In this document: positions 1,511 to 19,726 of the stretch, one piece after another | How the letters are laid out: each line of letters starts with the position of its first letter | Position numbering within the stretch: position 1 is the first letter of the stretch | NCBI GenBank assembly: GCA_965238005.1 | Contig: OZ250165.1 | Coordinates: 2,816,001 to 2,880,000 of the forward strand | Direction: 5' to 3' | From: Longimicrobiales bacterium | GTDB lineage: Bacteria > Gemmatimonadota > Gemmatimonadetes > Longimicrobiales > Gaopeijiaceae | Length of the DNA: 64,000 bases | Notes under the pieces: model-generated | What the model saw: only the letters and a program-made list of their open reading frames with translations | The model's database searches: none | What the model was told of the DNA's origin: nothing | Program-made: the position numbers and the translations under genes

Positions 1511-2279
1511 GCGATCTCTCTCCTTCCAAGACGATGGGTAAGATTATCTTACCATGACATAAGATACAGCATCCGGCCAGATGCGAAACAGGGATCTTTC
1601 TGCCGGCACGTCGGCCCCGGTCTGAAACCAGTCGCACGTTTGCCGGGCGAGCAAAAAGCAGAAGTGCAGGAAGAGGGACGCGACGAGGAAGGCAAGCTCT
1701 GGAGATGCCTCCAGTTCAGGATGGACCGGCGCCCTTGGTGGGCTACCGACACTTGTCTCAAGGATTCCGGTGCATAATCAGTCAACGCTGAGACCATGGC
1801 GGACGGGAGCGACCCCAGGCCAAACCAATACCACGCCCCAGATGGGTGCCTCTTCTGCCGCAGATCGCCCGTCCTCTACCGCCTTGAGAGCGATCCGATA
1901 CGGGGTGGCCCTACCTTCCGGGGTTGGGACAAGAGAAGCGCGAGAATACCGGCTATCACTAGCGCAGCTTGCATCATCTCCGGGACCTCCCAAACGGAGA
2001 CACGAACCCCCCGCGGGGGGTTCGGAGCGTTTCCCTCCGGGCGCTATCTACCCGCAGGGGAAGCGACATACGGCCCCCTGGCCAGGATCGGTAGGATTTC
2101 AAATCGCCGGACCATCATCGGGCCGTAGCCATCATCGCCGTCCAGGTCGGGCCGGTCGATCAGCCCAACCGTCAAAGCCAGGCAAACAGCCTCGGGATCT
2201 CGAGCCAGCGCCCGCTCACCACCGCGCCCCACACTCCGGCCGTCAGCTCTTCGCGGTCCAGCTGGTCAATTCTCATTCC

Positions 2280-2840: not shown

Positions 2841-4124
2841 TTGACGCGGAATCGCCAGTGTGCTCTCAAAGAGTTCAACGGGCTGGCGTTGCTCGATCTC
2901 AAGGCACGCGTAGAACGACCTCCGCAACGCAAGCCGCGCGGCCGGCATCCCAACAACGCGCTCACGCCGGTCTTCGTCCGCAACGTGAGCCGGGCCGGGC
3001 GCTATTGTGACGGCCAGGGCCTCTATCTCGATGTCCGGCCCACGGGGAGCCGGGGCTGGATCCAGCGCCTCACGATCCGGGGCCGCCGAACCGAACTCGG
3101 GCTCGGCGGATTCCCTCTGGTCTCGCTGAAGGAGGCGCGCGCGAAGGCGTTCGCGAACCGGAAGCTGGCCCGCGACGGTGGCGACCTCCTAGCCGAGAAG
3201 CGGCGGGCCGAGTCGATGCCCACCTTCGCGGAGGCGACACGGCAGGTCTGGACGCAGTTGCGGCCGGGCTGGCGCTCCGCGCAGCATGCGCAGCTATGGA
3301 TGAGCAGCCTGAAGCGCTTCGCCTTCCCCCGCATCGGCGGGATGCCGATTTCGGAGGTGACGAGCGCCGACGTGATCGGGATTCTGGCCCCGATCTGGCA
3401 CGACAAGGCAACCACCGCCCGGAAGCTGCGCCAGCGCATCCGCGCGGTCATGGAGTGGGCGGTGGCGATGGACCTTCGGCCCGACAACCCGTGCGATCGG
3501 ATCGCCCCGGTGCTCGGAGCCCACCGGAATGTTGTGCGTCACATGCGGGCGTTGCCTCACGGCGAGGTGGCGTCCGCGATCGAGAAGGTGCGGGGGTCCA
3601 ACTCGGGGCCGGTCGTGAAGCTGGCCTTCGAGCTGCTGGTGCTGACGGCGACGCGCTCCGGCGAGGTCCGTGGGGCGGTGTGGACGGAGATCGACCGGGA
3701 CGAGGGCGTGTGGACCATCCCGGCCGAGCGCACGAAGGGGAGCCGCGAGCACCGCCTCCCGCTCAGCGGTCGAGCGCTGGAGATTCTCGAGGAGGCGCGC
3801 GCGCTCGGTCGCGGCAGCCCGCTCGTGTTTCCGAGCGTGCGCGGCAAGCCGCTCGGGAATACGTCGTTGTGGGACCTGCTCAGGGGGCTGAAGATCGCGG
3901 CTGTGCCGCACGGCTTCCGGTCGTCGTTCCGGGACTGGGCGGCCGAGGAAACCGATCATCCACCCGAGGTGGCGGAGGCGGCGCTGGCGCACAAGGTCCG
4001 CAACCGGGTCGAGGCCGCGTACCGTCGCACGGATCTGTTCGAGCGGCGGCGTCGGCTGATGAACGATTGGGCCGCGTATCTGGCCGGCGAGCGTCGAGAC
4101 CCGGAGGCCGGTCCCAGCCGCTGA
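2841..4124 (+). CDS. P4-like tyrosine integrase (arm-binding N-terminal domain); native start probably replaced
   Basis: 'YCDGQGLYL', 'TATRSGE', 'HGFRSSFRDW', 'LAH', 'AYRR'; similarity to the 18503-19726 copy begins only at RPPQRK (~2917). Confidence 0.92.
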   Translation: MTRNRQCALKEFNGLALLDLKARVERPPQRKPRGRHPNNALTPVFVRNVSRAGRYCDGQGLYLDVRPTGSRGWIQRLTIRGRRTELGLGGFPLVSLKEARAKAFANRKLARDGGDLLAEKRRAESMPTFAEATRQVWTQLRPGWRSAQHAQLWMSSLKRFAFPRIGGMPISEVTSADVIGILAPIWHDKATTARKLRQRIRAVMEWAVAMDLRPDNPCDRIAPVLGAHRNVVRHMRALPHGEVASAIEKVRGSNSGPVVKLAFELLVLTATRSGEVRGAVWTEIDRDEGVWTIPAERTKGSREHRLPLSGRALEILEEARALGRGSPLVFPSVRGKPLGNTSLWDLLRGLKIAAVPHGFRSSFRDWAAEETDHPPEVAEAALAHKVRNRVEAAYRRTDLFERRRRLMNDWAAYLAGERRDPEAGPSR

Positions 4125-4163
4125 GGCGCGAGCCGTTGAGGCCCGATCCGAGGCCGATCCACG

Positions 4164-4197
4164 GCTGGCTCTTGACCCTTAAGGGTCAAGAGCCAGC
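4164..4197. repeat. Perfect 34-bp palindrome GCTGGCTCTTGAC-CCTTAAGG-GTCAAGAGCCAGC
   Basis: Read directly; variants at 9324-9358 and 18466-18499, each just after an integrase stop codon. Confidence 0.95.
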
Positions 4198-4524
4198 ATA
4201 CCCTTTGTACCCACAAAGGGGCTGGCGAGGGGGGCGCTCCGCTCCCCCTTCGATCCCCCCGAGGCCCGCGCTCCGGCGGAGCTCGCGGGTAGGGGGCGAG
4301 CCCCCCTTCCCCCCTGCCGGTGCGCTGCCCGCATCAGCGCTCGGTGGCCTTCCCGCCAAGGGATCCATGGAACGGGAGTATCCATGTCAAGAGGGTACCG
4401 TCAGGAGCGGGGCCGGGGAGACAGGGCGGGACGGTACCGGTGAACGCGGGATGCGGTCGCTGAGTCAGGCGAGAGCTCGCGGATGGAGCTGTTCGACCTG
4501 GCTCGCCGGTTGGGTGCATGGCGC

Positions 4525-5478
4525 TCATGCGTGGTGTCCAGGCGCGTACGCCGTCCAGATGCGATCCTGCTGCACGAGGGCGTTGGCGAGGACGAGGAGC
4601 TTCCGCATCACCGCCGTAAGGGCAACCTTCGGCGGTTTCCCCTTGGCCACGAGAGCCGCGTACTTCCGCTTGAAGTCGGGATTGTACCGGATCGCGACTA
4701 ACGCGGGCATGTAGAGCAATCGGCGCACCGGGTGCCTGCCACCCTGGATGAAGCTGCGTCCCTTCCAGGAGCCGGACTCCCGGGTCACTGGGGCGAGTCC
4801 GGCGAGGCTGGCGGCACGGGACCCGGTGAGAGTGCCCAGTTCAGGCATATGGACGATCAGTCCTGCGGCGGTGATGTCCGAGATGCCGGGGATGGAGGTC
4901 AGGATCTCGGACTGGCGCTCCAGAGCCTCCTCTGCCCGGAGCCGATTGCGGATCTCGGCGTCGATGCGCTTCAACTGGCGCTCGATCTGCTTCAGCCGTT
5001 GCTTGTTGAGCTGCTTGGCCACGGAGGTGCGCAAGTGCTTGCCGCGGTTGGTGATGGCGACCCGATCCCCGACCAGCGCATCGCGGACCAGCTGGAGTTC
5101 GGCAAGGTCGCGCTGCCCTTCGGACTTCGCTTGAGTCGGGCGGAGATCCTCGATGGCCGCCGCCATGGCGGCCAGCATCCGGGCGTCCACGGCATCGGTC
5201 TTGGCGCGCCGGCCGAGCGAGCGGGCGAAGGAGCGGACCTGGTAGGGGTTGATCGCGTAGAGGGGGAGCTTGGCCTTCAGGAGGGCATCCTCGAAGTCGC
5301 GGTGGAAGGGTCCGGTGGGTTCGTAGGCGATCCGGTCGACCTCGGAGCCGATCCAGGCGATCAGCTTCCGGAAGCCCGTCGGGTCATTCGAGAACCGGGA
5401 TGCTCTCCCCTCGGATACGGCGAAGACGTCGAGCCAGTCCTTGGAGATGTCGATCCCGATGGTGCGAAGGATGCTCAT
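4525..5478 (-). CDS. IS110 DEDD recombinase/transposase
   Basis: 'IGIDISKD', 'EPTG', 'KTDAVDA', 'GLAPVTRESG' motifs; RBS-supported ATG at 5478. Confidence 0.95.
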   Translation of the reverse strand: MSILRTIGIDISKDWLDVFAVSEGRASRFSNDPTGFRKLIAWIGSEVDRIAYEPTGPFHRDFEDALLKAKLPLYAINPYQVRSFARSLGRRAKTDAVDARMLAAMAAAIEDLRPTQAKSEGQRDLAELQLVRDALVGDRVAITNRGKHLRTSVAKQLNKQRLKQIERQLKRIDAEIRNRLRAEEALERQSEILTSIPGISDITAAGLIVHMPELGTLTGSRAASLAGLAPVTRESGSWKGRSFIQGGRHPVRRLLYMPALVAIRYNPDFKRKYAALVAKGKPPKVALTAVMRKLLVLANALVQQDRIWTAYAPGHHA

Positions 5479-5479
5479 C

Positions 5480-5700
5480 TTCCCTTCTCCTGTGCTTGTC
5501 ATGCGAGCCTCGATGCTCATGTATCCATTCAGGACGTAGGGAAGGACGGTGGCGACCATACTCCCGTGCGGCCCCTCACGGCCCAGCGACCCGCGGTCCG
5601 ACCACCGTCCCTGTTCGGCGCCCGCTCCGGCTCGCTACGCTCGCCTCCTCGGGTGCCGAACAGCCCGGGCCTTCCCCGTGACCCGGACCTGCAGATCAAA
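5480..5700 (-). ncRNA. Putative bridge RNA in the IS110 left end
   Basis: 5' hairpin plus two internal loops whose segments match target (GGGTCGCT, ACGGGAG) and donor junction (ATGGATAC, GACAAG); RNA ends approximate. Confidence 0.8.
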
Positions 5701-5729
5701 CAGACATACCTAAGAATGCAATAGACAAG

Positions 5730-5993
5730 CGACCCCAGGGGGCGGAGGCGGGCGCGTGAAAACGCGCACGGCTCCGCGCCCGTACCGGATCGTCAGATCG
5801 GGGGGTCGCTCCCGTCCCGGTCGGCGCGCCCTGATGCGCCCCCGCCGACCGGGCAAAACCTGGCGTAAACGCAACAACCGCAAAGAGATCGCGAGCTACG
5901 CCCCTGTGAATCGCGACCGGGGTAATCTGTGTATCGACCCCCGACGTGTCTTGCACATCGCAGTCCTGGCGTGGCGCGTCGGCTTCTCATCGG
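5730..5993 (+). repeat. Distal part of repeated non-coding module (inverted homolog at ~15592-15900)
   Basis: 5933-5993 is near-identical to the reverse complement of 15592-15654; 5730-5766 matches 15820-15858. Confidence 0.8.
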
Positions 5994-6024
5994 AATCGGG
6001 CCCGCCTATGCGAAGGAGGAGACG

Positions 6025-6510
6025 TTACGCCGGGCACGCCACCTGCCGAAGCATATCGGTGGTGTCCTCCAGGTCGAAGGTGGCCGTGACGGCCCCCCTG
6101 TTTGTCGTGACCTCAAGCTCTAGGGATTGGAAGCGGGCGAGCAGCCCGAGGAACCTGAGCCTCTCGGCCTCCAGGTGGAACGTGAGCCACGAGAGACCGT
6201 TGTTCCACCGGACGCGCTCCTGCGCTCCGTCGTCGAAGCGGTAGAGGACGGCGCCGCTGGTGAACTGCTCGCCGTCGTTGCCCTCGATGTAGAGATCCAG
6301 GCTGTCCATATAGCTTCCCGACAACGCGCGGAAGCACGCGTACTCCCAGACCAGGCGGTGCTCGGTGTCGTAGAGGCTCGCGGCCATAGCGGCCGGGCGC
6401 GAGCGGAGGGGATCGGTCTCTGCCGACTCCTCCATCTCCCACTGAGCCGAGACGGGAGTGACGTAGAGTAGAGCGAGCACGGCCCCGAGGGTCGCCTTGT
6501 TGACCAGCAT
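6025..6510 (-). CDS. Secreted hypothetical protein
   Basis: Signal peptide 'MLVNKATLGAVLALLYVTPVSAQ'; RBS. Confidence 0.7.
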   Translation of the reverse strand: MLVNKATLGAVLALLYVTPVSAQWEMEESAETDPLRSRPAAMAASLYDTEHRLVWEYACFRALSGSYMDSLDLYIEGNDGEQFTSGAVLYRFDDGAQERVRWNNGLSWLTFHLEAERLRFLGLLARFQSLELEVTTNRGAVTATFDLEDTTDMLRQVACPA

Positions 6511-8920: not shown

Positions 8921-9179
8921 ATTCGCCATTTCCTCTTCTACGAGGTTTCCCCGTGTTCGTGACCTTGCATCGGGACAGGGTATACTGATCGCCAGCTGAG
9001 CTCAAGGAGTTGCGAACTGCGCGACCACGATGCCAGGAGGAGCAAGGCGACCGCCGAGCCCTTGAAGAAACTCCCGCTACCCCGGAGGCGTGAAGACGGG
9101 GGAGCCGGACATCTTGACTACTACGGTGAGTGAGGAGAGACGGAATGGCGGAGCGTCATCTGTGCAGGACCTGTTGGGC

Positions 9180-9320
9180 CTGGCACATGTGGTCCAGAAA
9201 AGGGTCGAGGCGGCCTACAGGCGCACGGACCTGTTCGAGCGCCGGCGTCGGCTCATGGACGATTGGGCCGTGTACCTAGCCCGCGAGCGTCGAGAATCGG
9301 AGGCCGATCCGGTCCGCTGA
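9180..9320 (+). pseudogene. Solo 3' tail of P4-like integrase
   Basis: LAHVVQKRVEAAYRRTDLFERRRRLMDDWAVYLARERRESEADPVR*, followed by the palindrome. Confidence 0.9.
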
Positions 9321-9364
9321 GGCGCTGGCTCTTGACCCCTTAAGGGTCAAGAGCCAGCCTACCT

Positions 9365-10850
9365 ATGTGGACGCCCCCCTGGTTGGCAAGCCTGACGTCG
9401 TACCGAAGTCGCTGGCAGTCAGGTCAGGTACGGTACGGTCGTATGTGCGGCCTCTTGGTGCGGCACTTCTGGCCGCGGGCCCGTATGGTGTTCGTGAGAT
9501 CGGATCCAAATCGCAATGGCGGGCTCGGTGGCCCATCGTAGGCTACTGGTTTTTCCGACCCCGTCTTGTCGACCGTTTGCCCCTACCTTGTCCGCCGTCC
9601 TGCCTGCCCTCTCCAGTTGGGACCTTCCCAGCTCATGCCCATTCGGGTGATCGAGCCGTCAGCCCCGATGATCTCATCTCTCGCCTCCTCCGGGTTCCGG
9701 GTCTGGCCAACGCCTCTTCGCTACACGGATCCGACTCGCAACCCTACGCCGCGGCAGAAACGGCCTTCGTCACTCCCCGTGCCCTGTAGTTCTCCCCCCT
9801 CACCGTCACGGCCCAGATGATGCGCTCCATCCTGTTGGCCAGAGCCACCGCAACCACCTTCCTCGGCTTCTCGTCCAGCATCCGCCGAAGCCAGGGATCA
9901 GTGACTGGACCCCGCCGGATGGCACTCGAGATGACTGCCGTCGCCCCCAGGTACAGGAGCCTCCGGATGTCGCGCTGTCCCATCTTCGTGATCCGCCCCA
10001 GCCGCTGGCGGCCACCCGCCGAGGATTCACGAGGCGTGAGCCCGACCCATGCCGCGAAGTCGCGTCCATTGCGGAAGCTCTCCATCGGCGGAGCAAAGGT
10101 GTGGACCGCCATCGCCGTGCGCTCTCCCACCCCCGGGATCGTCATCAGGCGCCCGAGCGCCTCATCTTCCCTCGCAATGCGACGGATCTCCCGGTCCATC
10201 TCATGGATCTCCCCATCCAGCTCGTGGATCCGCTCGATGAGGAGGCGTATGGCGGGAGGCCCCATCGCCGGGAAATGCTCCTCACACCTGGCGAACGCCT
10301 CCTCCAGTCTCCCGATGTTGTCGGTCCCACGCGGAGCGACGAGGCCGAACTCCGCGAGGTGACCCCGCAGCGCGTTGATCGTCTGGGTCCGCTGGCGCAC
10401 GAGGAGCGCCCGGCTCCGGAACACCACCGAGCACGCCTGCGCTTCCTCGGTCTTCACGGCCACGAACCGCATCGTCGGCCGCTGGGCCGCCTCGACGATC
10501 GCCCCCGCGTCGTTCGCGTCGTTCTTCTGCCTCTTGACGTACGGCTTCACGTACACCGGGGAATCAAACGGACCACATGGCCGAGTTCCTGGATCTGCCG
10601 CCCCCAATAGTGGGCGCTACCGCACACCTCTAACACGACCCGACAGGCGGGCTGCCTGGCGAGGAACCCGAGCAGCTTCGAGCGCGTGAGCTTCCTGCGC
10701 AGCACAGGCTCACCGCCCGCAGTGGCTCCGTGCAGTTGGAAGTACCTCTTCGAGATGTCTATACCGATGATGCTGACCACCTTGTCCATGGATCCCCCCT
10801 CTCGTGTCCCGAACGCGCCCGGTGTGGGGGGCGTCCACTCCATCGCAATG
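9365..10850 (-). mobile_element. IS110-family element, IS1111 group
   Basis: 13-bp subterminal IR GTGGACGCCCCCC (9367-9379 / 10826-10838), long non-coding end downstream of the transposase, ATGTG at both junctions. Confidence 0.88.
9744..10789 (-). pseudogene. IS1111-type transposase with a 1-nt frameshift near 10558
   Basis: 'IIGIDISK' in one frame, 'PVYVKPYVKRQKNDANDA...GLTPRESSAGG' in another; break lies in a short C-run (may be a sequencing error). Confidence 0.88.
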
Positions 10851-11004
10851 TGATACATTGGAGCCTGGCGAGGGGGCGCTCCGCCCCCCCTTCGATCCCC
10901 CGGAGGCCCGAGCTCCGGCGGAGTTCGCGGGCGGGGGGCTCGGCCCCCGAACCCCCTTGCCGGTGCGCTGATGGCTGATCGCCCTGCAGCAATCGTCACC
11001 GCCA

Positions 11005-11120
11005 CCATCGAGGCGGCCCCTGGTGCATGTGGTCCAGAACGGGGTCGAGGCAAGCCTATCGGCGCACGGACCTTCTTCGAGCGCTGGCGTCGGCTGATGA
11101 ACGACTGGGCGGCCTACGTT
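11005..11120 (+). pseudogene. Degenerate solo 3' tail of P4-like integrase
   Basis: Frameshifted EAA..HVVQNGVEA.YRRTD..FERWRRLMNDWAAYV. Confidence 0.8.
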
Positions 11121-11217
11121 AGTGGGGAGCCGCCTCGTTGACGGTCTTTCGACTTGGCACTCTGCGCGGCTTGCCGGACGGGTCTTGAGCGTGGTGCTGA
11201 GGGACCCTCGAACCCGA

Positions 11218-12201: not shown

Positions 12202-13580
12202 GGAGCTAGGATCAAAGGGTGTGTAAAAGAGAGGCGACGTACCTTTCCGCTGACCATTAACCAGCGAGTCCCGAGTTGAGGCCCGGGGGAAAGGAACGTC
12301 GCCTCATGAGGAAGGATATCGCGGGACCCGAGACCGAGTCCACCATGCCGCTGTGGGAGGGCCTGGAGGGAGTGGTCCGTGAGAAGGCCCAGGAGTTCAT
12401 CCAAGAGATCTTGGAGGAGGAAGTCACCGAACTCCTGGGTCGGCCCAAGTCGGAGCGGAAGGCAGCCGTGGATGCGGCGCCTGGCTACCGCAACGGGTAC
12501 GGCAAGGCGCGGCGGCTGTCGATGAGTTCGGGCACGATCACGGTGCGACGCCCCCGGGTACGGGGTCTGGAGGAACGCTTCGAGAGTCGGGTGTTGCCGC
12601 TGTTCGCGAGACGGACGAAGGAGGTAGGTGAGTTGATACCGGAGCTGTACCTACACGGGTTGGCCGAGGGGGATTTCGAGCTGGCACTCAGGGGCCTACT
12701 CGGTGAGGGGGCGCCGCTGTCGAAGGCTTCGATCCGCAGGCTCAGGGCCGTGTGGTCGAGTGAGTTCGAGACGTGGGCGAAGCGGTCCTTGGCGGACCGT
12801 GAGGTCGTCTACGTATGGGCGGACGGGATCTACGTGAAGGCGGGCCTGGAGCGAGACAAAGCGGCGCTGCTGGTGGTGATGGGAGCCATGCGCGACGGGA
12901 CGAAAGAGGTTCTGGCCGTCACATCAGGCTACCGGGAGTCAACGGACTCGTGGGCGGAGGTCTTTCGGGGTCTCAAGGCTCGAGGCCTCGCAGCGCCGAA
13001 GCTACTGATGGCCGACGGTAACGCAGCGATCTGGGGCGCGGCGAGGACGGTGTGGCCTGAGGCCGGCGAGCAGCGGTGCTGGAATCACAAGATGAGGAAC
13101 GTCCTGGATCGGCTGCCGCAGCGCGAGCAGTCAGAGGCCAAGGAACTGCTGCGCACAGTCGTCTACGCCTCGACACGGGCCGCGGCGCTCAAAGCTCGTC
13201 AGGCGTTCGGCAAGCGTTATGGGCCGTGGTACCCGAAAGCTGTGACGGTGCTCGAGGATGACTGGGACCGCATGGTCACGTACTACGACTTCCCCGAAGC
13301 CCACTGGAAGCATCTACGGACGACGAATGTGGTGGAAAGCCCGTTCGCTTCGGTACGGATCCGCACGTCGGCAGCAAAACGATTTAAGCGCGTCGACAGT
13401 GCTACCGCCCTCATCTGGAAGCTCCTGACGGTGGCGGAGAAACGCTTCAGAAGGCTTGACGCTCCAAACCTGCTCAAGGACGTGTTTGAAGAAAGGAAGT
13501 TCAGGGACGGTAAGCCCGTCTCAGCTCATCAGCGCAAAGCAGCCGCCTGAAACGTTTACACACCTATTGACCCGACCTCC
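12202..13580 (+). mobile_element. IS256-family element
   Basis: Imperfect 26-bp IRs GGAGCTAGGATCAAAGGGTGTGTAAA / TTTACACACCTATTGACCCGACCTCC. Confidence 0.9.
12306..13550 (+). CDS. IS256-family transposase
   Basis: 'YRNGY', 'WADGIY', 'QRCWNHK', 'LRTTNVVES'. Confidence 0.95.
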   Translation: MRKDIAGPETESTMPLWEGLEGVVREKAQEFIQEILEEEVTELLGRPKSERKAAVDAAPGYRNGYGKARRLSMSSGTITVRRPRVRGLEERFESRVLPLFARRTKEVGELIPELYLHGLAEGDFELALRGLLGEGAPLSKASIRRLRAVWSSEFETWAKRSLADREVVYVWADGIYVKAGLERDKAALLVVMGAMRDGTKEVLAVTSGYRESTDSWAEVFRGLKARGLAAPKLLMADGNAAIWGAARTVWPEAGEQRCWNHKMRNVLDRLPQREQSEAKELLRTVVYASTRAAALKARQAFGKRYGPWYPKAVTVLEDDWDRMVTYYDFPEAHWKHLRTTNVVESPFASVRIRTSAAKRFKRVDSATALIWKLLTVAEKRFRRLDAPNLLKDVFEERKFRDGKPVSAHQRKAAA

Positions 13581-13717
13581 GTTGGCAGTCAAGCATTCAC
13601 TGGAGCATCTCGCTGAAATCGCAGCAAGCCACCCTGGTTCCAAGGAGATGATCAGCGACTGGAGTTGACCCGCTTTGGTGGACACCTCAGTAGTGAGGGA
13701 GACAGGAGGAGTCCACG

Positions 13718-14032
13718 ATGCCAAGAACACATGCGCCGTACCCGCCGGAGTTTCGGCGGCAGATGGTCGAGTTGGTCAGGTCGGGCCGCTCCGTGGAGGA
13801 GCTGGCCCGGGAGTTCGAGCCCTCAAACGGGGCGATACGGAACTGGGTCAAACAAGCTGACTTGGATGAAGGCCGTCGCAGTGACGGGCTGACGACGGAG
13901 GAGCGTGGGGAACTCAGGCAGCTTCGGCGTGACAACAAGCGTCTGCGCATGGAGCAGGAGATTCTAAAAAAAGCCGCCGCCTGGTTTGCTCGGGAGAGCA
14001 ACTCGATCCCGGAACGGGGTTCGAGTTCATGA
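13718..14032 (+). CDS. IS3 transposase OrfA
   Basis: 'YPPEFRRQMVEL', 'EILKKAAAWFA'. Confidence 0.92.
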   Translation: MPRTHAPYPPEFRRQMVELVRSGRSVEELAREFEPSNGAIRNWVKQADLDEGRRSDGLTTEERGELRQLRRDNKRLRMEQEILKKAAAWFARESNSIPERGSSS

Positions 14033-14880
14033 AGACGAATCAGGCCGACTTCCCTGTGCGGGCGATGTGCCGTGTGCTGGATCTCTCCCCCAGCGGCTAC
14101 TACGCCTGGTTGGATCGCGAGCCTTCGGCTCGGGCGAAGCGAGATGAGGAGCTCACAGAGCGGATCGAGACGGTCTGGCGCGAGAACCGAAGGGTCTATG
14201 GCCGGCCCCGCATCTACGCGGACCTCAAGGAAGCTGGCGAGCGGGTCGGTGAGAAGCGGGTGGGCCGGCTCATGAAGCAGGCCGAGATTGTGGGAGCTAG
14301 CCGGAGGCGGCGCGGCCCGAAGACGACCAGGCGCAACGAGGACGCCCGTCCCGCGCCGGATCTCATCGAGCGGGACTTCAGCGCAGACGGGCCAGACCAG
14401 TTGTGGGTGGCCGACATCACCTACATCCCGACCTGGGCGGGGTTCTTGTACCTCGCGGTTGTGCTCGACGTCTGGAGCAGGCGGGTGGTCGGGTGGTCGA
14501 TGGCTACGCACCTGCGCACCGAGCTCGTCCTGGACGCGCTGAACATGGCGACCTGGCAGCGCCGGCCCGAATGCGTCATCCATCACAGTGATCAGGGAAC
14601 CCAGTACACCTCGATCGCCTTCGGCCTACGCTGCAACGATGTCGGTGTGCGGCCCTCGATGGGCTCCGTGGGCGACGCCTACGACAACGCGATGTGCGAG
14701 AGCTTCTTCGCGACGCTCGAGTGCGAGCTACTCGACCGGCAGCGCTTCCGGACCCAGGCCGAGGCGAAGATGGCCGTGTTCGACTTCATCGAGGGCTTCT
14801 ACAACCCCCGGAGGCGACACTCGGCACTGGGTCAGCTGTCGCCCATCAACTTCGAGCGTCGCCACGGAGCGGCAGCATGA
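14029..14880 (+). CDS. IS3 transposase OrfB (DDE)
   Basis: 'WVADITY', 'HHSDQGTQY', 'DNAMCESFF'. Confidence 0.95.
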   Translation: MKTNQADFPVRAMCRVLDLSPSGYYAWLDREPSARAKRDEELTERIETVWRENRRVYGRPRIYADLKEAGERVGEKRVGRLMKQAEIVGASRRRRGPKTTRRNEDARPAPDLIERDFSADGPDQLWVADITYIPTWAGFLYLAVVLDVWSRRVVGWSMATHLRTELVLDALNMATWQRRPECVIHHSDQGTQYTSIAFGLRCNDVGVRPSMGSVGDAYDNAMCESFFATLECELLDRQRFRTQAEAKMAVFDFIEGFYNPRRRHSALGQLSPINFERRHGAAA

Positions 14881-15014
14881 GAAACCTGCGTGGCCAAGTT
14901 GCCCTTTACTCCCCCGCTGCGCGGGGGAAGCTTTCCTCTCCCCAGCGAGGGGGACAGACTATAAACCTCAGTGTTCACCCGTCCACTGAAACGGGACAGC
15001 TCCACTGTGACCAG

Positions 15015-15568
15015 GTTGCACCGGGCTTAGTGCCGGGTGAGGATTGAAACGAGGGCACGGTCCACGTTGTTGGCGTCATCGAAAGTGTTGCACCGGGCTT
15101 AGTGCCGGGTGAGGATTGAAACGGCGGCGAGGTGGGCGGCAAGACGGCGCTCTACGAGGTTGCACCGGGCTTAGTGCCGGGTGAGGATTGAAACGAATCA
15201 TAGTCGCTGAGCGCCTGCGCGACTGACAGGTGTTGCACCGGGCTTAGTGCCGGGTGAGGATTGAAACGGGTCGATGCCCATCCGTTTGCACAGTGCCTCT
15301 GACAGTGTTGCACCGGGCTTAGTGCCGGGTGAGGAGTGAAACACGGACAACGGCGAGACGCCGGACGACGGGCGCCTGGTTGCACCCGGCTTATTAGTGC
15401 CGGGTGAGGATTGAAACGCGGTAGACAACTTCACCGAGGCGCGTGCGACGGGCGAAGGTGGTTGCACCCGGCTTAGTGCCGGGTGAGGATTGAAACGTTG
15501 TCGGATATCTTGGAGACTGGCGACCACCTGCGGCTCCACCCGGCTTAGTGCCGGGTGAGCACTGCGCG
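15015..15568 (+). CRISPR. CRISPR array: 7 repeats plus 1 degenerate terminal repeat, 7 spacers (36-43 bp); no cas genes in window
   Basis: 36-bp GTTGCACC(G/C)GGCTTAGTGCCGGGTGAGGATTGAAAC at 15015, 15087, 15159, 15232, 15307, 15379, 15461; degenerate copy at 15533. Confidence 0.97.
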
Positions 15569-16324
15569 GGTGAGCGCTTCGATCATGGACGTTCCGATGA
15601 GAAGCCGACGGGCCACGCCAGGACTACGACGTGCAAGACACGTCAGGGGTCGATGCACAAACTTCTCGGGTTGCGATTCACACGGGCATGGCTTGCTAAC
15701 CCCTTGTGGCCGCTTGCAGTTGCGCACGTCGCTGCCCGGCCGTCGGTGCCAAACGGGGCGGCAGCGACGCGGAGGGGAGCGACCCCCCAGGCCGAGGGCC
15801 TGGAGATGGCGCGGGCCATGCGCGTTTTCACGCGCCTGCCCCCGCCCCCTCGGGGTCGCTCCCGAGCCATCAATCCCTTGGCGGGAAGGCCATCGAGCGC
15901 CGCCGGAGCGCGCAGTCGGGGGCTCCGCCCCCTTCCCCCGGCGCGTCCCGATGCCCGATCGCCGCAGCGGCACCGTCGCCCCCTGAACGTCCGCCGGACC
16001 CCGCTTTCCCACAAGCCGAGGAGGCACGGTCCGAGGGGGGAACCCGAGCACGAGGGACCAAGCGAGGGATCCCCACGGTGCTCGAGTCGAGCGAGGATTC
16101 AGGCTGCGAGTGGCGCAAGAGACCGTCTTGCTCCGAGGTCGGCGGCCCGCCTATGGTTGAGGGTGCTCAGAGAACCGGGGGTGGCACAGCCTGCCCCACG
16201 AAGCTCGCGGTCCACGTCAGCGCGTGAAGATCAACGCCGGGGGCAAGAAAGCTGCCGGAATCCACTTTCGCTGTGCCCTCGGACTGTCCAGCAAGGTAGG
16301 ACCACCCCACCCGGACTCCTCGAC

Positions 16325-18163: not shown

Positions 18164-18502
18164 GGAAGACACCCCGGCAGGGTATGGGCCCAGGCCCACA
18201 TGGCACAAGCGGGGGTCGCCGGGGCGGTCCGCGTCCGCGTGTGCGCCATGGCCTGCCGCAGCCGCGCCGACAGAGCGACACGCCAGCGGCTGCGGCCCGT
18301 CAGGTGGCGAGCGCGGCCGGTGGCGGTGACGGCCCGGCGATCGGGCATCGGGGGAAGGGGGGGCGAGCCCCCGCCCGCGAGCTTCGCCGGAGCGCGGGCC
18401 TCGGGGGGATCGAAGGGGGAGCGGAGCGCCCCCCTCGCCAGCCCCTTTGTGGGTACAAGGGGTATGCTGGCTCTTGACCCCTAACGGTCATGAGCCAGCG
18501 CC

Positions 18503-19726
18503 TCAGCGGATCGGTCCGGCCTCCGCGTCTCGACGCTCTCTGGCTAGGTAGGCAGCCCAGTCGTTAATCAGTCGGCGTCGGCGCTCGAACAGGTCCGAGC
18601 GCCGGTACGCCGCCTCGATCTGGTTGCGGACCTTGTGCGCCAGCGCCGCCTCCGCCACCTCGCGAGGGTGGTCCGTCTCTTCGGCCGCCCAGTCGCGAAA
18701 GCTCGACCGGAAGCCGTGCGGCACGGCCGCGATCTTCAACTCCCCGAGCAGTTCCGACAGCGCCGTGCTCGCGAATGGCTTCCCGCGCACGCCCGGAAAC
18801 ACGAGCGGGCTGCCGCGACCGAGCATCCGCGTCTCCTCGAGGATCTCCAACGCACGGCGGCATAGCGGGACCCGGTGCTCGCGGTTCCCCTTCGTGCGCA
18901 GCGCCGGGATGGTCCACACGCCTGCGTCCCGGTCGATCTCCGTCCAGACCGCCCCCCGGACCTCGCCGGAGCGTACCGCCGTCAGCACCAGCAACTCGAA
19001 GGCCAGCTTGACCACTGGCCGCGCGTTCGACGCCCGCACCGTCTCGATCGCGGACGCCACCTCACCGTGCGGCAACGCCGGCATGTGCCGGACAAGCCCC
19101 CCCTGCGCTCCGAGCACCGGACCGATCCGGTCGCACGGGTTGTCGGGCCTGAGATCCATCGCCACGGCCCACTCCATGACCGCGCGGATGCGCTGGCGCA
19201 ATTTCCGGGCGGTGGGCGGCATGTCGTGCCAGATCGGAGCGAGAATCCCGATCACGTCGGCGCTCGTCACTTCCGCAATCGGCATCTCACCGATGCGGGG
19301 GATCGCGTAGCGCTCCAGGCTCTTCAGCCAGAGCTGCGCATGCTGAGGGGAGCGCCAGCCCGGCCGCAGTTGGTTCCAGACCTGCCCCGCCGCCTCCGCG
19401 AAGGTGGGCATCGACTCGGCCCGCCGCTTCTCGGCCAGGAGGTCGCCACCGTCGCGGGCCAGCTTCCGGTTCGCGAACGCCTTCTCGCGCGCTTCCTTCA
19501 GCGAGACGAGGGGGAATCCTCCGAGCCCAAGCTCGGTTCGGCGGCCCCGGATCGTGAGGCGCTGCACCCAGCCCCGGCTACCCGTGGGCCGGACATCGAG
19601 ATAGAGCCCCTGGCCGTCGCAATAGCGTCCGGCCTGGCTCACGTTGCGGACGAAGGCGGGCGTGAGCGCGTTGTGGGGATGCTGGCCGCGCGGCTTGCGT
19701 TGCGGAGGTCGGTTGGGGAGTGTCAT
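18503..19726 (-). CDS. P4-like tyrosine integrase, close paralog of 2841-4124
   Basis: Same motif set (TAVRSGE, HGFRSSFRDW, LAH, AYRR); ATG at 19726. Confidence 0.95.
   Translation of the reverse strand: MTLPNRPPQRKPRGQHPHNALTPAFVRNVSQAGRYCDGQGLYLDVRPTGSRGWVQRLTIRGRRTELGLGGFPLVSLKEAREKAFANRKLARDGGDLLAEKRRAESMPTFAEAAGQVWNQLRPGWRSPQHAQLWLKSLERYAIPRIGEMPIAEVTSADVIGILAPIWHDMPPTARKLRQRIRAVMEWAVAMDLRPDNPCDRIGPVLGAQGGLVRHMPALPHGEVASAIETVRASNARPVVKLAFELLVLTAVRSGEVRGAVWTEIDRDAGVWTIPALRTKGNREHRVPLCRRALEILEETRMLGRGSPLVFPGVRGKPFASTALSELLGELKIAAVPHGFRSSFRDWAAEETDHPREVAEAALAHKVRNQIEAAYRRSDLFERRRRLINDWAAYLARERRDAEAGPIR

Follow-up and report, generated by a model that had tools for sequence, protein, structure and literature searches.

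The locus described here raises the question of how an insertion sequence (IS) finds its landing site in the chromosome of an uncultured Longimicrobiales bacterium (assembly GCA_965238005.1, contig OZ250165.1). The window analyzed is a stretch of 64,000 nucleotides, positions 2,816,001 to 2,880,000 of the contig, and coordinates refer to the window unless they are given as genome positions. An initial annotation, made from the sequence alone, had described an IS110 element with a bridge RNA in which all four guides could be read, programmed against a repeat of the host integrative element. In our analysis the minus-strand element at 4377-5729 is very probably an intact insertion sequence of the IS110 group with a bridge RNA and the mode of action of IS621, and its programmed landing site is one arm of a dispersed palindromic repeat. 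The element and its flanks are composed as follows.

4377-5729, minus strand: whole IS110-group insertion sequence, CT core of both junctions included (1,351 bp counting one core)
5730-5736, minus strand: left target flank GGGGTCG
5479-5727, minus strand: left-end non-coding region, 249 nt, predicted template of the bridge RNA
4525-5478, minus strand: recombinase open reading frame (ORF), 317 amino acids plus stop, recognized by Pfam, NCBIfam and structure matches
4379-4524, minus strand: right-end non-coding region, 146 nt, with the terminus CTTGACATGGATA
4372-4376, minus strand: right target flank CCCGT

On the minus strand, GGGGTCG-CT-TGTCT forms the left junction (CT at 5729-5728) and CATGGATA-CT-CCCGT the right one (CT at 4378-4377); the longer strings are ...CCCCTGGGGTCG-CT-TGTCTATTGC... 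at 5736-5719 and ...CTTGACATGGATA-CT-CCCGTTCC... at 4391-4369. Reading of the sequence and a script both recovered all the strings and junctions that the initial annotation had listed. Long terminal inverted repeats are absent, and each side carries a dinucleotide CT core instead of a target duplication. The ends of the IS are independently fixed, because an uninterrupted paralogous copy of the repeat at genome positions 839301-839447, which is 95% identical to window 5728-5831, crosses the junction with a single CT and continues to the right of 4378. A metagenome contig (from run X1; contigs of four runs were compared) that joins 4376 to 5728 and skips 1,351 nt was not used as an empty allele, since its shorter side is only 21 nt long with 90% likeness, and it most likely stems from the paralogous uninterrupted repeat. 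A left end of 249 nt and a right end of 146 nt correspond to the layout of the IS110 group and not to that of the IS1111 group; a long left end and a short right end are the reported criterion for the former, and the latter is characterized by a short left end, a long right end and sub-terminal repeats that are long (PMC11208160).

The recombinase had been annotated as intact, and its ORF is indeed full length with every catalytic residue of IS621 kept. It matches Pfam PF01548 (DEDD_Tnp_IS110; E 9e-23, 81 bits against a cut-off of 29) and PF02371 (Transposase_20; E 4e-19, 69 bits against a cut-off of 21.3), and it scores 213 bits against the NCBIfam model NF033542 "IS110 family RNA-guided transposase", which has a cut-off of 140. 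The best solved relative is ISCro4 (PDB 9t56; E 9.9e-32, residues 4-302), and IS621 (PDB 8wt6) aligns over the same residues 4-302 with a phmmer E value of 1.4e-31. Residues D10, E53, D95, D98, S235 and G236 align with D11, E60, D102, D105, S241 and G242 of IS621, where an offset of 2 in the chain numbering of 8wt6 was derived by hand. In IS621 residues D11, E60, D102, D105 and S241, together with G242, are reported to be essential (PMC11208158).

The left end contains two loop modules, each with a pair of guides.

5544-5610, minus strand: target-binding loop module, from the RNAalifold consensus mapped to the window
5585-5592, minus strand: left target guide GGGTCGCT, 8 nt, same sense as the left target plus core
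5561-5567, minus strand: right target guide ACGGGAG, 7 nt, reverse complement of CT-CCCGT
5481-5542, minus strand: donor-binding loop module, from the consensus fold
5521-5528, minus strand: left donor guide ATGGATAC, 8 nt, same sense as the right-end terminus ATGGATA plus the C of the core
5495-5500, minus strand: right donor guide GACAAG, 6 nt, reverse complement of CT-TGTC at the left-end terminus

Along the RNA the order is left target guide, right target guide, left donor guide and right donor guide, and both order and senses are those of the IS621 model, as the initial annotation had proposed. The published rules for bridge RNAs ask for a 5' guide of 8-9 nt, a 3' guide of 4-7 nt, inclusion of the core, and a long left and short right end (PMC11208160); here the target loop offers 8 + 7 nt and the donor loop 8 + 6 nt. 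The 249-nt left end folds with a minimum free energy of -118.8 kcal/mol (z -2.75). In the consensus folds, which were built from 22 full left ends and 50 unique loop regions of relatives, stem-loops at 5700-5611 precede both loop modules. The target module has an outer stem (5610-5594 / 5558-5544), a 5' loop side (5593-5584), an inner hairpin (5583-5570) and a 3' loop side (5569-5559), corresponding to unpaired CGGGTCGCTG, the small hairpin GGCCGTGAGGGGCC and unpaired GCACGGGAGTA. The donor module is built likewise from an outer stem (5542-5530 / 5492-5481), a 5' loop side (5529-5520), an inner hairpin (5519-5504) and a 3' loop side (5503-5493), that is, unpaired AATGGATACA, a hairpin and unpaired CATGACAAGCA. 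Folding of the left end had been suggested as a check on whether the guides are buried in stems, and they are not, since the consensus folds place all four unpaired in stem-closed internal loops. Compensatory base pairs are found in the outer stem of the target module (one pair changed from AU to GC in 4 sequences, another likewise in 6, and a third from CG to UA in 11) and also in the long upstream stem of the 22-relative consensus. The stems of the donor module are near-invariant and thus uninformative either way on compensatory change.

The chance of finding such matches was estimated from 20,000 mononucleotide shuffles of the left end. Single guides were matched at the observed length in 605 (3%), 1854 (9%), 51 (0.3%) and 2282 (11%) of the shuffles for the left target, right target, left donor and right donor guide, respectively, and the four matches were found jointly in none of the 20,000.

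If the target loop programs insertion, its letters should follow the flanks of the element from site to site, and this covariation was the check proposed in the initial annotation. Among 401 genomes of the phylum, 74 gave protein matches with E values of 1e-30 or below (three unpublished genomes are counted only there), and a scan of species-representative genomes gave 80 loci, mostly titled as Longimicrobiales or Gemmatimonadetes metagenome-assembled genomes and in a few cases as Acidobacteriota, Bryobacterales, Gammaproteobacteria or Candidatus Palauibacter. Many of the relatives' genomes carry several copies of the element. Both stem anchors were present at 98 of 137 loci, which yielded 63 unique guide/flank combinations; the 39 others, among them truncated copies and distant relatives at 36-42% identity, were dropped from the covariation count, and several with variant stems were used for the stem covariation. 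On the left side a copy's own guide fits its own flank at a mean of 5.52 of 7 non-core positions compared with 4.42 for shuffled pairings, and on the right side at 3.78 of 7 compared with 2.33 (n = 63 on either side). None of 5,000 shuffles reached the observed mean on the left or on the right, in a control that ignores the kinship among copies.

Since relatedness is ignored in the shuffle control, stronger evidence is provided by separate guide classes that reside at their own sites. Guide GGTCGCT is found at GGTCG-CT, GGCTGCT at GGCTG-CT, GCTGGC at GCTGG-CT and TTCAGGCT at TTCAGG-CT. Changes of the right guide within a class are mirrored by the flank, as in loci L080 and L081 with GCCGGAG at CT-CCGGC and in L051 with AAGTGAG at CT-CACTT, and the right guide GTCGTCAAG of L009 is mirrored at CT-TGACGAC. 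In the alignment, variability peaks on both sides of the target loop, with at least 35 distinct target-loop sequences among the 63 unique copies, whereas the stems and the donor loop are fixed. The donor guides are invariant in 50 of 50 aligned relatives, and the termini CT-TGTCT and CATGGATA-CT do not vary among the relatives found. Insertion of other copies at unrelated targets would have spoken against the initial annotation; instead, relatives with the GGTCGCT left guide, the present copy included, have GGTCG-CT on the left at 14 of 14 unique sites, and at 7 of these the right flank is exactly CT-CCCGT. Some copies with the GCTGGC guide (L014, L043, L087 and L125) are embedded in short tandem arrays, (GCTGGCTT)n or (GCTT)n, whose sequence is similar to the left target plus core of the copy itself.

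The site selected by the present copy belongs to a repeat family, of which the window holds the following empty targets and intact copy.

5802-5815, plus strand: empty perfect 14-nt target, the other arm of the palindromic repeat interrupted by the IS, arms 86 nt apart
1803-1816, minus strand: empty perfect 14-nt target, a solo arm for which no inverted partner was found
15773-15865, no strand assigned: intact copy of the palindromic repeat, both arms matching the target at 13 of 14 positions, three-way junction fold

Target GGGGTCGCTCCCGT is present in five perfect 14-mer copies in the genome, three of them outside the window, and the 13-mer covered by the guides in six; its 11-nt core GGGTCGCTCCC has 44 occurrences, where base composition predicts about 12. 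Both empty perfect targets in the window had been pointed out before and were verified. The 13/14 match previously placed at 15852-15864 is also present, but its true end is one base further, at 15865, and the intact copy carries a second 13/14 match at 15773-15786 (minus strand; the first is on the plus strand) that had not been listed. The target is the terminal, basal-stem arm of an 86-94-bp palindromic repeat with arms GGGAGCGACCCC / GGGGTCGCTCCC enclosing two inner hairpins, and the three-way junction fold of the intact copy (15770-15868) has DNA z-scores of -5.1 and -7.0. This genome contains 18 copies with exact 11-nt arms and 21 when one mismatch per arm is allowed (further examples are at genome positions 741199-741286, 839320-839408 and 2807030-2807122), and they fall into at least two subfamilies by internal sequence. 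Of 81 genomes sampled from the bacterial family, 8 contain the repeat, the other seven holding 24, 16, 7, 7, 3, 3 and 2 copies, and a reversed control pattern gave no occurrence in the same 81 genomes. At 10 of the 14 unique sites with the same left guide, this one included and from several genomes, an inverted arm is located 86-90 nt upstream, and we therefore assign those sites to the same repeat family.

In the mechanism that we propose, transcription of the left end would yield a bridge RNA that contains two internal loops and would be bound by the recombinase. The guides of the target loop would jointly specify GGGTCG-CT-CCCGT, the basal-stem arm of the repeat family of this lineage, and the donor loop with ATGGATAC and GACAAG, which matches the circle junction ...CATGGATA-CT-TGTCT... 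in sequence, would recognize that junction by pairing with the DNA. By analogy with IS621, the DEDD/Ser recombinase (D10, E53, D95, D98, S235) would then swap strands at the CT core, and the circle would be inserted with no duplication beyond the core. Circularization may also create a promoter from two boxes located at opposite ends of the element.

4390-4385, minus strand: candidate -35 box TTGACA, perfect, 6 nt from the core at the right end
5713-5718, minus strand: candidate -10 box CATTCT, a 17-nt spacer after TTGACA once the ends are joined (string positions only)

Joining of the two boxes could raise the expression of both RNA and recombinase. For IS621, a sigma-70 promoter is reported to be restored across the circle junction (PMC11208160). 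TTGACA is kept in 11 of 17 aligned copies, the present one included, and is replaced in six, by TTGTGA in five and by TTGCGA in L019. GGAG at 5490-5487 is located 8 nt ahead of the ATG and is a putative ribosome-binding site; as it lies within the 3' arm of the donor stem, folding of the RNA may also gate translation.

The system shares with IS621 of Escherichia coli the two-domain DEDD/Ser recombinase with all catalytic residues aligned, an RNA (here predicted) with two internal loops in a long left end that contrasts with a short right end, guides that include the CT core and measure 8 nt on the 5' side (same sense) and 6-7 nt on the 3' side (reverse complement), a target in a palindromic repeat, and a -35 box, here a candidate, at the right-end terminus. 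It differs in being distant in sequence (the phmmer E value given above), in having other guides and ends, in roughly 115 nt of additional stem-loops that precede the target loop, and in its G+C-rich Gemmatimonadota host. The likeness to ISCro4, the best-scoring solved relative, covers the same span and was compared at the protein level only. ISPpu10 and ISPpu9 of Pseudomonas putida are reported to use as insertion sites the identical copies of a stem-loop or REP (repetitive extragenic palindromic) sequence that is conserved and intergenic, and the structure of the repeat is reported to contribute to recognition by ISPpu10 (PMC12288879; 10.64898/2026.03.19.712850). A dispersed palindromic repeat stem is likewise the target here, but the repeat is larger (86-94 bp) and has a three-way junction fold. 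The IS1111-attC group consists of IS110-family elements that insert into integron attC sites, and these set an earlier example of IS110-family elements directed to a recombination site that belongs to a different mobile system; the present element differs by its IS110-group layout and by a repeat that is only a hypothetical recombination site.

The element represents the known IS621-type mechanism in a new bacterial lineage, and no new mechanism. Thousands of bridge-recombinase orthologues are reported to have been analyzed already (PMC11208160), and among the matches listed by a literature search none paired IS110 with Longimicrobiales, Gemmatimonadota or Palauibacter. Judged from sequence, the element is a plausible candidate for a new programmable ortholog, as had been suggested, and to a family under development for genome editing it contributes a bridge recombinase that can be read cleanly and comes from an uncultured group rich in G+C (phylum Gemmatimonadota, Longimicrobiales). 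Its close relatives constitute a small natural experiment, in which a single recombinase and a single donor loop occur together with many target loops at matching sites, and they could serve as a compact test set for the rules of target-loop reprogramming and for off-target tolerance. The analysis also flags a lineage-specific palindromic repeat as a landing pad.

Several observations weigh against a guided element of this kind, in addition to the kinship ignored by the shuffles. Some relatives fit their flanks poorly: L004 and L036 score 3/7 on the left and 2/7 on the right, L016 likewise 3 and 2, four copies (L009, L037, L058 and L102) score 2/7 on the left, and nine copies with one common guide set score 1-4/7 on the right. 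These ill-fitting relatives may reflect off-target events or guiding in trans. Because the donor loop and the ends of the IS never vary, the pairing of the donor is without support from covariation. CATTCT is a weak match to the -10 consensus, and we therefore only infer the promoter step. A search of Rfam 15 with window 4000-6200 at E values up to 1 gave no match, although that library may simply hold no bridge-RNA family; the palindromic repeat likewise had no match in this stretch. No RNA run turned up among 22 runs listed for the element. Finally, only one full copy is present despite six empty perfect 13-nt sites, so that present-day activity is hypothetical. As for L004 and L036, both in genome G374, their guides CTGGCTGCT / TCTGGTAG (the GGCTGCT / CTGGTAG set) mismatch their own flanks GGGGTCG-CT-CTCGT and do match the site held by near-identical copies in two other genomes (L005 and L006); possible explanations are insertion off target, guiding in trans, or a single odd insertion that was duplicated later.

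The single copy leads to the alternative that survives best, in which the anatomy is the same and the element is a resident, immobile copy whose guides record a past insertion, with no meaningful transposition in this host. We regard this as possible, though doubtful. The 4.84-Mb single-contig genome has one full copy, while all six perfect 13-nt and five perfect 14-nt targets are empty, and the sole other trace, a 55-nt remnant of a decayed left end, is interrupted by an IS256-family element. Moreover, the IS3-family element of the window is present in 20 or more near-identical copies, showing that the host is not blocking IS expansion in general. Integrated IS621 is reported to express its bridge RNA weakly and to be excised less efficiently than it is inserted (PMC13626964), and both findings would agree with a silent lone copy that has unfilled targets close by. 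On the other hand, the ORF is complete and lacks none of the catalytic residues, the stems and guides are intact, both flanks are still matched, and close relatives (79-93% protein identity) are multi-copy elsewhere, with up to ten loci on one chromosome. The remnant itself (genome 526204-526265, locus L002) is 89% identical to the left end, adjoins GGGGGGGGCG-CT, and is located beside a degenerate arm of the palindromic repeat.

A second alternative takes up the claim of the initial annotation that the target is a repeat of the host integrative element. According to this explanation the IS would be specialized as a parasite on another mobile element, and its target would be an att-like recombination site of a multi-copy module defined by a P4-like integrase, one paralog of which lies next to the IS.

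2841-4124, plus strand: P4-like tyrosine integrase paralog (Pfam PF13356 + PF22022 + PF00589), stop 248 bp from the interrupted repeat arm

With tblastn, 28 matches to paralogs of this integrase were found in the genome at 29-87% protein identity, many of them fragments. Much in their arrangement agrees with the claim: 20 of the 21 intact repeats are within 15 kb of such a paralog, where 28 matches with a 15-kb radius would cover only about 17% of the genome by an arithmetic estimate, and 5 of 22 repeats (the interrupted one counted) are located 197-268 bp downstream of an integrase stop. The interval from integrase to repeat is also conserved between paralogous modules, with 82.6% identity over 2915-4378 and then 95% over 5728-5831, and a perfect hairpin just past the integrase stop (4166-4205; GGCTCTTGACCC-TTAA-GGGTCAAGAGCC) resembles the GCTGG-CT-TGACCA sites that host GCTGGC-guide relatives in other genomes. 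However, 16 of the 21 intact repeats are not adjacent to an integrase, and an integrase-like match was found in only 7 of 62 unique insertion loci of relatives when about 1.3-1.5 kb of flank was searched. At four other integrase modules the far side yielded no second matching arm, any action of the integrase on the repeat would be conjecture, and IS110 members that target host palindromic repeats are reported as the ordinary case (PMC12288879; 10.64898/2026.03.19.712850). The claim thus stands as far as proximity to integrases goes, and the explanation as a whole appears unlikely. We therefore regard the repeat as a palindromic element that is dispersed and enriched in islands, like the landing sites usual for IS110 members such as ISPpu9 and ISPpu10, and as not demonstrably part of an integrative element.

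Two further ideas about this region were given up. The solo arm at 1803-1816 and the interrupted arm could be seen as direct repeats flanking the integrase in the manner of attL and attR, but the pattern was not found at the four other modules. The extra CT in the hairpin 4166-4205 was considered as a CTCT footprint, and since it is mirrored in both arms we take it as ordinary variation. Integrase paralogs in the window are found at 2841-4124 and 18350-19711, with fragments at 9176-9363 and 10844-11131, and in the genome they cluster near 0.33, 0.51, 0.64-1.0, 2.1, 2.7-2.84 and 4.79-4.83 Mb together with IS copies and palindromic repeats. The size of the family may be due to tandem accretion of islands or to a small integrase-only mobile module.

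A bolder version, which we hold to be improbable and mention as speculation, would make the whole Longimicrobiales IS110 clade a hyperparasite. Its donor loop is frozen and its target loop has repeatedly been rewritten, and this rewriting would follow families of palindromic repeats, at least two of which occur within 250 bp downstream of multi-copy P4-like integrases; the three-way-junction repeat would be the recombination site of the integrase, and the mismatches in G374 would result from guiding in trans. An IS lineage would then track another mobile element through reprogramming of its RNA.

That the loop-to-flank matches are coincidental and the left end a structured 5' leader regulating translation of the transposase is highly improbable, for even though single guide matches are not rare in shuffles of this G+C-rich leader and the GGAG in the 3' arm of the second stem makes a translational role possible alongside guiding, the four matches never occurred jointly, the loop positions and strand senses are those prescribed by the IS621 model, and the target-loop letters change with the flanks across relatives while the stems are fixed.

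Besides the IS621-like element described above, the window contains other mobile elements. A second IS110-family ORF of 287 amino acids at 9744-10607 (minus strand) has a complete Transposase_20 domain, whereas of the DEDD domain just the final third is present. Over 107 residues it shares 31% identity with the main element, and it is probably truncated. The regions 12202-13580 and 13654-15004 contain an IS256/Mutator-family IS, with several copies at 79-97% identity, and the IS3-family (rve) IS mentioned above, whose 20 or more copies at about 100% identity suggest a recent expansion. Adjacent to these, about 550 bp at 15010-15559 show internal tandem or dispersed self-similarity, with multiple offset self-matches at 70-77% identity.

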